Assembly (NCBI RefSeq): GCF_044324875.1 | Contig: NZ_CP172185.1 | DNA length: 64,000 nt | Reading direction: 5' to 3' (one strand) | Source of the DNA: Escherichia coli | GTDB taxonomy: Bacteria; Pseudomonadota; Gammaproteobacteria; Enterobacterales; Enterobacteriaceae | Shown: positions 976 through 47,799 of the stretch, one piece after another | Layout: the number at the start of each line of letters is the position of its first letter | Position numbering within the stretch: position 1 is the stretch's first letter | The notes under the pieces: generated by a model | Seen by the model: the letters and a program-made list of their open reading frames with translations, nothing else | What the model was told of the DNA's origin: nothing | Database searches by the model: none | Position numbers and translations under genes: made by a program

Positions 976-3798
976 ATGGATAAGATCGAAGTTCGGGGCG
1001 CCCGCACCCATAATCTCAAAAACATCAACCTCGTTATCCCCCGCGACAAGCTCATTGTCGTGACCGGGCTTTCGGGTTCTGGCAAATCCTCGCTCGCTTT
1101 CGACACCTTATATGCCGAAGGGCAGCGCCGTTACGTTGAATCCCTTTCCGCCTACGCGCGGCAGTTTCTGTCACTGATGGAAAAGCCGGACGTCGATCAT
1201 ATTGAGGGGCTTTCTCCTGCCATCTCAATTGAGCAGAAATCGACGTCTCATAACCCGCGTTCTACGGTGGGGACAATCACCGAAATCCACGACTATTTGC
1301 GTTTGTTGTTCGCCCGCGTCGGTGAGCCGCGCTGCCCGGACCACGACGTCCCGCTGGCGGCGCAAACCGTCAGTCAGATGGTGGATAACGTGTTGTCCCA
1401 GCCGGAAGGTAAACGCCTGATGCTGCTCGCGCCAATCATTAAAGAGCGCAAAGGCGAACACACCAAAACGCTGGAGAACCTGGCAAGTCAGGGTTACATC
1501 CGTGCTCGTATTGATGGCGAAGTCTGCGATCTTTCCGATCCGCCGAAACTGGAACTGCAAAAGAAACATACCATTGAAGTGGTGGTTGATCGCTTCAAGG
1601 TGCGTGACGATCTTACCCAACGTCTTGCCGAGTCGTTTGAAACCGCGCTGGAGCTTTCCGGTGGTACCGCGGTAGTTGCGGATATGGACGACCCGAAAGC
1701 GGAAGAGTTGCTGTTCTCCGCTAATTTCGCCTGCCCAATTTGCGGCTACAGTATGCGTGAACTGGAGCCGCGACTGTTTTCGTTTAACAACCCGGCAGGG
1801 GCCTGCCCGACCTGTGACGGCCTTGGCGTGCAGCAATATTTCGATCCTGACCGCGTGATCCAGAATCCGGAACTGTCGCTGGCTGGCGGTGCGATCCGAG
1901 GCTGGGATCGCCGCAACTTCTATTACTTCCAGATGCTGAAATCGCTGGCAGATCACTATAAGTTCGACGTCGAAGCGCCGTGGGGCAGCCTGAGCGCGAA
2001 CGTGCATAAAGTGGTGTTGTACGGTTCTGGCAAAGAAAACATTGAATTCAAATACATGAACGATCGTGGCGATACCTCCATTCGTCGTCATCCGTTCGAA
2101 GGCGTGCTGCACAATATGGAGCGCCGTTATAAAGAGACGGAATCCAGTGCGGTACGCGAAGAATTAGCCAAGTTTATCAGCAATCGCCCGTGCGCCAGCT
2201 GCGAAGGGACGCGTCTGCGTCGGGAAGCGCGCCATGTGTATGTCGAGAATACGCCGCTGCCTGCTATCTCCGACATGAGCATCGGTCATGCGATGGAATT
2301 CTTCAACAATCTCAAACTCGCAGGTCAGCGAGCGAAGATTGCGGAAAAAATTCTTAAAGAGATTGGCGATCGCCTGAAATTCCTCGTTAACGTCGGCCTG
2401 AATTACCTGACACTTTCCCGCTCGGCAGAGACACTTTCTGGCGGTGAAGCCCAGCGTATCCGTCTGGCGAGCCAGATTGGTGCGGGCCTGGTTGGCGTTA
2501 TGTACGTGCTGGACGAGCCGTCTATCGGCCTGCACCAGCGCGATAACGAGCGCCTGTTGGGTACGCTTATCCATCTGCGCGATCTCGGTAATACCGTGAT
2601 TGTGGTGGAGCACGACGAAGACGCGATTCGCGCCGCTGACCATGTGATCGACATTGGCCCGGGCGCAGGTGTACACGGCGGTGAAGTGGTCGCAGAAGGT
2701 CCACTGGAAGCGATTATGGCAGTGCCTGAGTCGTTGACCGGGCAGTACATGAGCGGCAAACGCAAGATTGAAGTGCCGAAGAAACGCGTTCCGGCGAATC
2801 CGGAAAAAGTGCTGAAGCTGACAGGCGCACGTGGTAATAACCTGAAAGACGTGACGCTGACGCTGCCAGTCGGTCTGTTTACCTGCATCACAGGGGTTTC
2901 AGGTTCCGGTAAATCGACGCTGATTAACGACACACTGTTCCCGATTGCCCAACGCCAGTTGAATGGTGCGACCATCGCCGAACCGGCACCGTATCGCGAT
3001 ATTCAGGGGCTGGAGCATTTCGATAAAGTGATCGATATCGACCAAAGCCCAATTGGTCGTACTCCGCGTTCTAACCCGGCGACCTATACCGGCGTGTTTA
3101 CGCCTGTGCGCGAACTGTTTGCGGGCGTACCGGAATCCCGTGCGCGCGGCTATACGCCGGGACGTTTCAGCTTTAACGTCCGTGGCGGGCGCTGCGAAGC
3201 CTGTCAGGGCGACGGCGTGATCAAAGTGGAGATGCACTTCCTGCCGGATATCTACGTACCGTGCGACCAGTGCAAAGGCAAACGCTATAACCGTGAAACG
3301 CTGGAGATTAAGTACAAAGGCAAAACCATCCACGAAGTGCTGGATATGACCATCGAAGAGGCGCGTGAGTTCTTTGATGCCGTACCTGCACTGGCGCGTA
3401 AGCTGCAAACGTTGATGGACGTTGGTCTGACGTACATTCGCCTGGGGCAGTCCGCAACCACACTTTCTGGTGGTGAAGCCCAGCGCGTGAAGCTAGCGCG
3501 TGAGCTGTCAAAACGCGGCACCGGGCAGACGCTGTATATTCTTGATGAGCCGACCACCGGTCTGCACTTCGCCGATATTCAGCAACTGCTCGACGTACTG
3601 CATAAACTGCGCGATCAGGGCAACACCATTGTGGTGATTGAGCACAATCTCGACGTGATCAAAACCGCTGACTGGATTGTCGACCTGGGACCGGAAGGCG
3701 GCAGTGGCGGCGGCGAGATCCTCGTCTCCGGTACGCCAGAAACCGTCGCGGAGTGCGAAGCTTCGCATACGGCACGCTTCCTCAAGCCGATGCTGTAA
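976..3798 (+). CDS. uvrA: Excinuclease ABC subunit A
   Basis: 940-aa translation [19 protein letters not shown]...; two ABC ATPase halves with Walker [10 protein letters not shown] and GVSGSGKST and zinc-finger Cys motifs. Confidence 0.98.
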
Positions 3799-43163: not shown

Positions 43164-43399
43164 TAGCAATACTCTTCTGATTTTGAGAATTGTGACTTTG
43201 GAAGATTGTAGCGCCAGTCACAGAAAAATGTGATGGTTTTAGTGCCGTTAGCGTAATGTTGAGTGTAAACCCTTAGCGCAGTGAAGCATTTATTAGCTGA
43301 ACTACTGACCGCCAGGAGTGGATGAAAAATCCGCATGACCCCATCGTTGACAACCGCCCCGCTCACCCTTTATTTATAAATGTACTACCTGCGCTAGCG

Positions 43400-43625
43400 C
43401 AGGCCAGAAGAGGCGCGTTGCCCAAGTAACGGTGTTGGAGGAGCCAGTCCTGTGATAACACCTGAGGGGGTGCATCGCCGAGGTGATTGAACGGCTGGCC
43501 ACGTTCATCATCGGCTACAGGGGCTGAATCCCCTGGGTTGTCACCAGAAGCGTTCGCAGTCGGGCGTTTCGCAAGTGGTGGAGCACTTCTGGGTGAAAAT
43601 AGTAGCGAAGTATCGCTCTGCGCCC
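43400..43625 (+). promoter_or_regulatory. Lysine riboswitch (L-box) in the lysC leader; boundaries approximate
   Basis: Long structured leader upstream of lysC with L-box-like elements (AGAGGCGC...TTGCC..., GGAGGAG, GAGGGG, ...CCAGAAG...); E. coli lysC is known to carry a lysine riboswitch. Confidence 0.6.
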
Positions 43626-45562: not shown

Positions 45563-46435
45563 TTAACGCCCCTTCTTTTTACGCCCCGGCGAGGTAAAAC
45601 GCTTACCGTTGGACGCCGGGCGACCGCCTTTTTCCGCCGTTTTTTCCATCTTAACGACTGGACGTTTGATGCCCGCCGTTTTCGGTTTGGCCTTCGTTTT
45701 AGGTTTTGCCTCGGAAGAGGAATTTTCGATGAGCTTAAAGAGGTCGATTAACTCATCGTCAGTTAAATCGCGCCACTCACCCAGCGGAATGCCGCTTAAG
45801 CTGACGTTCATAATGCGCGTACGTTCCAGCTTTTTCACTTCGTAACCAAAGTGCTCGCACATGCGCCGGATCTGACGGTTCAGCCCCTGCACCAGGGTAA
45901 TGCGGAAGACAAACGGCGCTTCTTTTTTGACTTTGCACTTTTTCGTCACCGTCCCGAGGATCGGCACCCCCGCCCCCATACCACGAATAAATTCATCGGT
46001 AATCGGTTTATCGACCGTCACCAGATACTCTTTCTCATGATCGTTACCCGCACGGAGGATCTTATTCACTAGATCGCCGTGATTGGTGAGGAAAATCAGC
46101 CCCTGGGAGTCTTTATCCAGGCGGCCAATCGGGAACACGCGTTTGCTGTGGTTAACGAAATCGACAATGTTATCGCGCTCGCCATCTTCGGTGGTGCTGA
46201 CAATACCGACGGGCTTGTTCAGGGCGATAAGTACCAAATCTTCGGCTTCCCGAGGCTCAATCAACTGACCGTTTACTTTCACAACGTCGCCGGGTTTCAC
46301 CTGATCGCCAATGGTGGCTCGCTTGCCATTAAGGAACACATTGCCTTGCTCGATATAGCGATCCGCTTCGCGGCGTGAGCAAATTCCGCTTTCGCTGATG
46401 TATTTATTTAAACGGACTGATGAGTCGGGCAGCAT
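45563..46435 (-). CDS. rluF: 23S rRNA pseudouridine synthase F
   Basis: 290-aa translation with S4 domain [33 protein letters not shown] and RsuA-type catalytic motif [12 protein letters not shown]. Confidence 0.93.
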
Positions 46436-46752
46436 AAATTCTCCTGTAAAACGCGGAATATACCGTACCTCTTAGCGGGGAAAAACAGGGTTATGCGGCA
46501 ACGTCGAAATTAAATGTGATCTGCCACGCCTTTTATCACAAAAGTGTCTCCGGAAGTACGATGCAAATTTGCCTGGCAAAATAAGGATAATCAACATATT
46601 ACGAATCGCTGCACACCTGTGCTGATGACTACTACGCAGAGAAACAAATGTGCAAGAGAAAGCGCTATTTCTCCCCATGCAAAGAGTGAAAAATCGCTTT
46701 GAAAGGCCCTCATGATGGGGTTATATCAGATCAAGCGGTGAGAAAGCGTATT

Positions 46753-46766
46753 TGCACAAATGTGCA
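46753..46766. promoter_or_regulatory. Perfect 14-bp palindrome TGCACAAATGTGCA upstream of sorC, candidate operator
   Basis: Inverted repeat seen directly, about 17 bp upstream of the sorC ATG; function inferred. Confidence 0.4.
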
Positions 46767-46782
46767 GAACCAGGAGGCGGCA

Positions 46783-47730
46783 ATGGAAAACAGTGACGAT
46801 ATCCGTTTGATTGTGAAGATTGCCCAACTCTATTACGAACAGGATATGACGCAGGCGCAAATCGCGCGCGAACTGGGTATTTACCGCACCACCATCAGCC
46901 GCTTGCTTAAACGAGGCCGCGATCAGGGAATTGTCACCATCGCCATCAACTATGACTACAACGAAAATCTCTGGCTGGAGCAGCAACTGAAGCAAAAGTT
47001 TGGCCTGAAAGACGTTGTGGTGGTGTCGGGAAATGATGAGGATGAAGAGACTCAACTGGCGATGATGGGGTTACACGGCGCGCAACTGCTGGATCGCTTG
47101 CTGGAACCTGGCGATATTGTCGGTTTTTCCTGGGGTCGCGCGGTGAGCGCACTGGTTGAAAACTTGCCGCAGGCGGGGCAATCGCGGCAGTTAATCTGCG
47201 TACCAATTATTGGCGGACCGTCCGGTAAACTCGAAAGCCGCTATCATGTAAACACATTAACCTACAGCGCGGCAGCGAAGCTGAAAGGGGAATCGCATCT
47301 CGCGGATTTTCCGGCTCTGCTGGATAACCCATTAATTCGTAATGGGATCATGCAGTCTCAGCACTTTAAAACCATCTCTGCCTACTGGGATAATCTGGAT
47401 GTCGCCCTGGTGGGAATTGGCTCACCGGCCATTCGCGACGGCGCTAACTGGCATGCGTTTTATGGTGGTGAAGAGAGTGACGACCTGAATGCCCGCCAGG
47501 TTGCTGGCGATATTTGCTCGCGCTTTTTTGATATTCACGGCGCAATGGTTGAAACGAATATGAGTGAAAAAACACTCTCTATCGAAATGAATAAATTAAA
47601 GCAGGCACGATATTCCATTGGCATTGCCATGAGTGAAGAAAAATACAGCGGAATAGTTGGTGCACTGCGTGGAAAATATATTAATTGTCTGGTAACGAAT
47701 AGCAGCACAGCTGAACTATTACTGAAATAA
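46783..47730 (+). CDS. sorC: SorC-family transcriptional regulator of the sorbose operon (track ORF starts at 46699)
   Basis: Translation MENSDDIRLIVKIAQLYYEQDMTQAQIARELGIYRTTISRLLKRGRDQGIV... (N-terminal HTH plus sugar-binding domain), 315 aa; AGGAGG Shine-Dalgarno. Confidence 0.85.
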   Translation: MENSDDIRLIVKIAQLYYEQDMTQAQIARELGIYRTTISRLLKRGRDQGIVTIAINYDYNENLWLEQQLKQKFGLKDVVVVSGNDEDEETQLAMMGLHGAQLLDRLLEPGDIVGFSWGRAVSALVENLPQAGQSRQLICVPIIGGPSGKLESRYHVNTLTYSAAAKLKGESHLADFPALLDNPLIRNGIMQSQHFKTISAYWDNLDVALVGIGSPAIRDGANWHAFYGGEESDDLNARQVAGDICSRFFDIHGAMVETNMSEKTLSIEMNKLKQARYSIGIAMSEEKYSGIVGALRGKYINCLVTNSSTAELLLK

Positions 47731-47799
47731 AAATCTTCCCGATGTTTACCGTAATAAAAATTACGGCGGGTCCCTATTATCTAAAAACAGGAGTCTGTT

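Follow-up and report, generated by a model that had tools for sequence, protein, structure and literature searches.

What does the inverted repeat lying just in front of sorC do in Escherichia coli, and which protein reads it? SorC is the namesake of a large family of sugar-responsive regulators; according to Woehrl et al. (1990), as cited in PMC12817954, it is a repressor when L-sorbose is absent and an activator when the sugar is present. The original prediction took the repeat for a candidate operator, either autoregulatory or serving another regulator, in what is called here the window, i.e., the whole 64-kb stretch of E. coli DNA (64,000 nucleotides) that was analysed. The question is addressed below from the locus itself, from the conservation of the repeat and of its relatives in the control region, and from the regulators beside which the same sequence is found.

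The sor locus and the inverted repeat in front of sorC

The repeat is located in the intergenic region between rluF and sorC. The stretch around it (46300-47000) is 100% identical to that of E. coli O121 RM8352, in whose annotation rluF, on the minus strand, is followed by a seven-gene sor operon encoding a "sugar-binding transcriptional regulator", an SDR oxidoreductase, four subunits of a mannose/sorbose-type PTS and sorE. The operon is present in about half of the complete E. coli genomes (2864 of 5426) and is over-represented in pathogenic lineages of the species (PMC12817954). Genomes of E. coli that lack sor match the query only up to about 46470, which places the left junction of the island there, beside rluF. 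Elsewhere in the window, at about 43268-43464, the identical reference genome carries an annotated lysine riboswitch upstream of lysC.

The presumed binding protein is the product of sorC itself (46783-47730, + strand), a regulator of the SorC/DeoR subfamily made of an N-terminal HTH and a sugar-binding domain. The product matches Pfam PF04198 (E = 1e-80) as well as HTH models, and among Protein Data Bank entries it is best matched over its full length by the SorC of K. pneumoniae (2W48, E = 2e-183), from which residues 1-64, comprising the DNA-binding domain, differ only by the substitution D47E; this best match and the near-identity of residues 1-64 justify the gene name sorC. The DNA-binding domain also aligns to that of DeoR in 7BHY (E = 1e-8), and the base-contacting arginines of DeoR, R34 and R39, align with R35 and R40 of SorC in a nearly identical helix. 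Translation of sorC is served by a ribosome-binding site recognised from the sequence (46772-46785, + strand), with AGGAGG at 46772-46777 and the ATG at 46783-46785; the start codon at 46783 agrees with the PGAP annotation of an identical E. coli genome. In the majority of the other genera, no gap separates the Shine-Dalgarno GGAG from the box, and translation begins two codons earlier. On the other side of the gene, the 69-bp spacer between sorC and sorD holds an inverted repeat of its own, CCGTAAT-AAAA-ATTACGG at 47749-47766, with no T-run after it, which may serve in RNA stability or processing or as a weak attenuator.

The repeat under study, TGCACAAATGTGCA, is found on the + strand at 46753-46766, exactly where the original prediction had placed it. 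It was said to lie about 17 bp before the sorC start codon and to adjoin the Shine-Dalgarno sequence; the measured distance to the ATG is 16 nt, and AGGAGG begins 5 nt after the repeat. The description of the repeat as a perfect 14-bp palindrome has to be given up, its reverse complement, TGCACATTTGTGCA, mismatching it at 2 positions. The actual symmetry consists of 6-bp arms, TGCACA and TGTGCA, flanking a non-symmetric AA; the same letters can also be parsed as TGCAC-AAAT-GTGCA or as the 16-mer TTGCAC-AAAT-GTGCAG at 46752-46767. This 16-mer, hereafter S3, is proposed as the promoter-proximal SorC operator, on the grounds of its conservation and of its likeness to OL, the left half-operator of DeoR. 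Seven truly perfect 14-bp palindromes exist elsewhere in the window, starting at 3754, 6332, 25002, 30537, 41083, 43389 and 53932.

Judged by statistics, the repeat alone is at chance level and not significant: perfect 6-N2-6 inverted repeats number 23 in the 64-kb window, where Markov simulations lead one to expect about 18 ± 4. The case for a functional element is thus made by conservation and context. Two features of that context can be read in the window itself. The exact pattern GCAC-N4-GTGC occurs in the 64 kb only at 46611 and 46754, i.e., twice in one intergenic region, 143 bp apart, in two boxes termed S1 and S3. Within the same 347-bp intergenic region the 11-mer ACAAATGTGCA also occurs twice, in S3 and in a further box, S2, as happens in 3.2% of simulated regions.

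Conservation, spacing and setting of the boxes

For the study of conservation, the 360 bp upstream of sorC were aligned in 28 sequences, this window and 27 other Enterobacterales genomes, which sample about 12 genera (Escherichia, Pseudocitrobacter, Citrobacter, Klebsiella, Raoultella, Mangrovibacter, Serratia, Pantoea, Cedecea, Entomohabitans, Kluyvera and Enterobacter) and whose SorC proteins are 70-100% identical to the present one. No block of the sor control region is better conserved than S3, which reaches 1.96 of 2 bits per column with 12 of 14 columns invariant, compared with 0.6 bits per column in the 14 bp just upstream, 1.13 in the 15 bp downstream and 1.10 regionwide. TTTGCACAAATGTGCAG is kept in all 28 orthologous upstream regions; the exceptions at S3 amount to one central base in two Kluyvera loci and one flanking base in Serratia sp. 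H1w, and a plasmid-borne Serratia sor operon keeps the box with one internal base change. This conservation in every sorC upstream region, next to an upstream flank that has been randomised, supports the reading of the repeat as an operator, whether for SorC or for another regulator. The search for further copies of the palindrome that went with that reading succeeded in all orthologous sor loci and retrieved no copy upstream of sorD. A recurring near-match inside sorD, GCGCnAATGTGC, about +1115 from the sorC start, is coding sequence for AQGANVQ with two mismatches here and was set aside as a coding coincidence. Variation within E. coli is uninformative, given that the region is nearly identical in almost all genomes that carry it (2794 of 2866 are at least 99% identical over the region).

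Rather than a lone operator, S3 is a member of a set of three or four related boxes on either side of the predicted sor promoter. S2 (AGAAAC-AAAT-GTGCAA, 46640-46655), 112 bp upstream of S3, shares with it the exact 11-mer mentioned above; its inner 14-mer is GAAACAAATGTGCA (46641-46654), and its conserved part comprises the right half and the centre only (CAAATGTGCAA), with 1.88 bits per column in the core. S1 (CTGCAC-ACCT-GTGCTG, 46609-46624; inner 14-mer TGCACACCTGTGCT at 46610-46623) lies 31 bp upstream of S2 and 143 bp upstream of S3, and it keeps its GCAC and GTGC arms across the 28 sequences around a variable 4-bp centre, a pattern typical of a site that would be contacted through its arms. 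At this distance from S3 (143 bp, or 144 bp in Serratia), 24 of the 28 loci have the exact GCAC-N4-GTGC and 2 more a version with one mismatch; a scan at this offset in the 28 loci found no S1 in either of the Kluyvera loci. Over the 4-7 kb of the ortholog loci, exact copies of the pattern are essentially confined to the positions of S1 and S3. A possible and weak fourth box, S0 (TCAC-AAAA-GTGT, 46536-46547), is present 75 bp upstream of S1. Its core, CACAAAAGTG at 46537-46546, is retained exactly by 24 of the 28 sequences and with a single mismatch by 2 more, and three species show at its position a one-mismatch match to GCAC-N4-GTGC; S0 may tentatively be assigned to SorC.

The spacing of the boxes is fixed: S1-S3 measures 143 bp and S2-S3 112 bp in 25 of the 28 chromosomal loci and in the plasmid-borne Serratia sor operon, with diverged sequence in between. 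One extra base brings S2-S3 to 113 bp in Serratia sp. H1w. Both Kluyvera loci have a fully palindromic S2 at a distance of 101 bp, 11 bp or one helical turn shorter; the argument from helical phase that can be made of this draws on one evolutionary event, in Kluyvera, at a locus reduced to sorC and a sorD-like gene. S1 and S2, being 31 bp or about three turns apart, lie on one face of the DNA. The 112 bp between S2 and S3 correspond to 10.7 turns at 10.5 bp per turn, and these two boxes share a face only if the repeat in vivo is near 11.2 bp.

Several loci depart from this arrangement or add to it. The Kluyvera control region is shortened to the full-palindrome S2, the promoter and S3, the latter being TGCACATATGTGCA, a truly perfect 14-bp palindrome; the sorD-like gene of these loci is followed by a 229-aa ORF of pepE-like length. 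E. coli 2013C-3492 carries a clean 112-bp deletion between the 11-bp direct repeats ACAAATGTGCA of S2 and S3 (46644-46766 in the window), which leaves one hybrid box and removes both the predicted -35 and the predicted -10; this deletion constitutes a natural test of the promoter assignment given below. A second short sequence, GAGAAAGCG, is repeated at 46656-46664, just after S2, and at 46740-46748, just before S3, followed by (C)TATTT; this repetition is confined to the clade of E. coli and Pseudocitrobacter, where a partial duplication may have left it behind.

A promoter can be predicted in between. Scanning of the 28 orthologous regions with position-weight matrices for -35 and -10 elements (matrix values approximate) points to a sigma-70 promoter of the sor operon at 46699-46727 on the + strand, with -35 TTGAAA (46699-46704), a 17-bp spacer and -10 TATATC (46722-46727). 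This pair is the sole sigma-70-like candidate conserved in 28 of 28 sequences (mean score 6.2, minimum 3.7, first in 15), and its mean score at one aligned position is far above that of any other. It belongs to an invariant block, GGGTTATATCAGATCAAG, with a conserved A-tract before it; it stands 26 bp upstream of S3, with no insertion or deletion between the -10 and S3 in any of the 28 sequences, and it is the sole candidate left in Kluyvera, whose control region lacks all that lies upstream of S2. The predicted -10 is weak, TATATC being devoid of the final T, and a scan of 46380-46850 for the strict sigma-70 consensus and for terminators found neither. Transcription is expected to start near 46734; counted from there, S3 would extend from about +19 to +34 (centre about +26), with S2 near -86 and S1 near -117. 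A start downstream of 46767 is hardly possible, as the Shine-Dalgarno sequence begins at 46772. Another candidate, with its -10 near 46586-46600, scores well in a few species, is unconserved and belongs to a module missing in Kluyvera; it was rejected as the main promoter and is a possible second one.

The upstream part of the region offers sites of other kinds. A match to the IHF core consensus, AATCAACATATTA = WATCAANNNNTTR (46589-46601, + strand), identified from the consensus only, falls almost midway between S0 and S2, the former 53.5 bp and the latter 52.5 bp from its centre in a nearly symmetric arrangement; 21 of the 28 sequences have it exactly and 4 more with one mismatch. A CRP-like site, TGTGA-TCTGCC-ACGCC (TGTGATCTGCCACGCC, 46515-46530), has a conserved left half with an invariant TGTGATC and shows in most sequences 2-3 mismatches to TGTGA-N6-TCACA. 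It precedes the predicted start by about 211 bp, which is unusual for CRP, and this remoteness from the predicted promoter makes its role uncertain. Between these two is a perfect 10-bp palindrome, GCAAATTTGC (46563-46572), kept across genera as TGCAAnTTTGC and loosely resembling the TGCA motifs of CytR type, for which we know of no binder.

The binding protein, a proposed mechanism and its alternatives

Indications of the binding protein come from outside the Enterobacterales. SorC homologues of the Firmicutes Terrilactibacillus, Pseudalkalibacillus and Paenibacillus (43-48% identity) share the recognition helix GIYRTTISR(L/M)LK with SorC. Two of their three genes are preceded by an exact GCACAATTGTGC and the remaining one by two copies of it with one mismatch each, and in these loci a further box or half-box is located 19-20 bp away. 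This helix is paired with GCACAA(A/T)TGTGC both in Enterobacterales and in the three Firmicutes loci. Homologues encoded on Priestia plasmids, with the helix SINRTSISR, are preceded by two tandem hybrid TTGCAC/TTGAAC boxes 18 bp apart, TTGCACATTTATTCAA and TTGAACAAATGTGCAT, placed between a near-consensus promoter (TTGACA-17-TATATT) and the Shine-Dalgarno sequence, which is the relative place of S3. Homologues from Chloroflexi MAGs with the helix GLSRVKVYRLLK have another palindrome just upstream, in one or two copies of GTGCAATTGCAC or TGTGCATTTGCACA, which is probably the own operator of those SorC-family genes. The sequence of the box therefore tracks the recognition helix across lineages, in what is a small sample, the cross-phylum support consisting of five Firmicutes loci. 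As the box accompanies the shared helix into the Firmicutes, changes with the helix and fits the layout of a DeoR half-operator, SorC is its likely binder, and S3 can very probably be taken as a genuine site at which SorC itself binds.

Taken as a whole, the model that we favour and consider likely is that S3 is a 16-bp SorC box through which SorC represses sorCDFBAME and regulates its own synthesis, probably while being looped to S2/S1. The 16-mer would be bound by one dimer of SorC DNA-binding domains, at a place between the sor promoter and the sorC ribosome-binding site; when L-sorbose is lacking, SorC on S3 would hinder promoter clearance or elongation, and the ensuing repression would cover sorCDFBAME, sorC included, and so amount to autoregulation. 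The dimer on S3 would furthermore be bridged to S2/S1 with the promoter looped out, which is probable since the SorC tetramer contains two DNA-binding dimers and no other box is closer than 112 bp. The inducer would loosen the tetramer and the loop would open, after which SorC on the upstream boxes could activate. This scheme is consistent with published work on the family: SorC-family proteins are dimers of dimers, and the tetramer binds two half-sites, one box per dimer of DNA-binding domains (PMC11229326), while a tetramer-to-dimer switch has been proposed for the dual role of SorC (PMC2943609). What was observed directly is the sequence and how well it is conserved, the family of boxes at fixed distances, and the occurrence of the box together with SorC-type recognition helices; from this we infer that SorC binds, where the promoter and the start lie, and that there is a roadblock, a loop and a step of activation. 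The set of boxes S1-S3, with S0 as a possible addition, together with their coordinates and the predicted promoter, allows direct tests of dual repression and activation.

SorC bound to S3 might instead be a stand-alone roadblock and autoregulatory site, devoid of any role in looping or activation, with S1 and S2 forming a separate bipartite operator or activator site; we hold this for possible, albeit on the doubtful side. S3 is indeed the most symmetric and most conserved of the boxes, S1 and S2 are 31 bp apart on one face, and loop-free operators downstream of the start are known, e.g., that of CggR at +32 to +77 (PMC11229326). However, the tetramers of the family bind two half-sites, and half-operators of DeoR, when isolated, are too weak for binding to be measurable in solution (PMC11229326), a point that weighs against the favoured model as well. 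The distances S2-S3 and S1-S3 are moreover strictly kept despite the diverged spacers, and, the single extra base of Serratia sp. H1w aside, the sole change seen is one of 11 bp.

That a factor other than SorC binds the box, be it CRP, Cra, CytR, NtrC or an uncharacterised enterobacterial regulator, is improbable. TGCAC and GTGCA are also the arms of NtrC sites, and TGTGC is close to TGTGA, the half-site of CRP. TGCA is the core of CytR sites (PMC5137460), and the CRP-like and IHF-like sites elsewhere in the region suggest that other factors do act here. Yet the full requirements of these proteins are not those of S3, whose arms TGCAC and GTGCA enclose a 4-bp spacer: CRP needs the 22-bp symmetric TGTGA-N6-TCACA, and NtrC needs TGCACC-N5-GGTGCA, where 7 bp separate TGCAC from GTGCA. 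A sigma-54 promoter would moreover call for a conserved GG-N10-GC (-24 GG/-12 GC), which is absent, the stretch that would hold it being unconserved. Cra has TGAAAC half-sites and CytR requires flanking CRP sites, and neither fits S3 in spacing and sequence. The same box stands beside Firmicutes homologues of SorC, in organisms that lack these enterobacterial factors, and changes with the helix; the global regulators of enterobacteria are for this reason unable to explain the distribution of the box, which the preferred assignment to SorC does.

It is quite unlikely that the element acts in the mRNA, as a 7-bp hairpin with an AAAU loop 5' of the Shine-Dalgarno sequence that would tune the translation or stability of the sorC leader. 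The box would be transcribed from the predicted promoter and always adjoins the ribosome-binding site, and a hairpin of -7.1 kcal/mol can be drawn at 46751-46768. However, the arms are invariant and show no covariation, the loop is conserved as well, the sorC leader folds no better than shuffled sequence (z = -0.40), an Rfam search with the leader gave no match, and the hairpin does not sequester the Shine-Dalgarno sequence. The motif recurs, besides, at S1 and S2; both precede the predicted promoter and would not be part of the transcript, and a reading at the level of DNA covers all copies. Finally, a functionless chance palindrome is hardly credible: its kind does occur at chance rate in the window and variation in E. 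coli tells nothing, but the near-invariance of the box across about 12 genera beside randomised intergenic bases, and its recurrence in Firmicutes, already contradict this reading.

As for what was known before, a full-text search of the accessible literature found neither a SorC operator nor a sor start site, and strings of the S3 motif turned up there only as unrelated primers. RegPrecise may hold a computed SorC motif. A statement of 2010 has it that operators of the family were known only for DeoR and CggR (PMC2943609), although boxes of LsrR had already been reported in 2009; a structural paper of 2024 names no SorC operator (PMC11229326). The S3 box thus seems never to have been described before for SorC, while being an ordinary kind of control element; as an autoregulatory operator it would be conventional and would not surprise specialists.

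Comparison with known systems

Within the same subfamily, LsrR is, like SorC, autoregulatory, and two boxes are present in the lsr intergenic region of E. coli. LsrR differs from SorC in its helix, GLTRLKVSRLLEKG, and in its boxes, AACAAT and AAGATTTAA, as reported by Xue et al. (2009) according to the citation in PMC5137460.

The regulator of the gapA operon of B. subtilis, CggR, resembles SorC in the organisation of its locus: in both cases the regulator is encoded by the first gene of the operon that it represses (for SorC, according to the model), and the operator of CggR follows the transcription start, as S3 follows the predicted one. The inducer of CggR acts by disruption of the tetramer (PMC2943609, PMC11229326). 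Unlike SorC, CggR has a winged-helix domain, and its operator is of a different sequence, with adjacent halves and no distant partner boxes.

Distant operators that enclose a promoter within a loop are familiar from gal, with OE and OI about 113 bp apart, and from lac, with O1 and O3 separated by 92 bp. As proposed here for sor, where the boxes would stand at about -86 and +26 with a conserved spacing of 112 bp, the operators of gal and lac flank the promoter and are held by a multimeric repressor having two DNA-binding units. In contrast to sor, the gal and lac repressors are of another protein family, and SorC also activates; the loop at sor is, in addition, one that we infer.

The closest comparison is with DeoR of B. 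subtilis, whose homeodomain-like HTH domains, of the type also encoded by sorC, sit as a dimer on TTGAAC-AAAA-TTTCAA and make base contacts through R34 and R39 (PDB 7BHY and 8R7Y; PMC11229326). This left half-operator (OL) and S3 have in common the 6-4-6 layout with arms of the TTGxAC type, an A/T-rich 4-bp centre and 11 of 16 identical bases, and the two proteins share the recognition helix R-x-T-[IV]-S-R-L-L with both base-contacting arginines; the fourth base of the half-site is A in DeoR and C in SorC. The two systems part in the architecture of the whole operator. That of DeoR is a contiguous 39-bp unit at -60 to -21, with halves about two turns apart, and DeoR is a repressor only; S3, in contrast, stands alone, 112 bp from the next box and downstream of the predicted start, and SorC also activates. 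A partner half-operator about two turns from S3, such as would make up a contiguous operator of 39-45 bp, is lacking, the nearest related box being the one at 112 bp. The Firmicutes homologues do have this two-turn partner, with a spacing of 18-20 bp, so that its absence sets S3 apart from them as well as from the operators of DeoR and CggR. It is conceivable, and we put it forward tentatively, that the SorC of Enterobacterales split the contiguous two-turn operator of the family into distant boxes enclosing the promoter, to which an extension bent by IHF would add S0, the CRP-like site and S1; the tetramer would repress by means of the loop, and, once sorbose has broken it, dimers left on S1 and S2 would activate. 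If this is true, the promoter-enclosing loop would constitute the physical basis of the long-known dual activator/repressor role of SorC.
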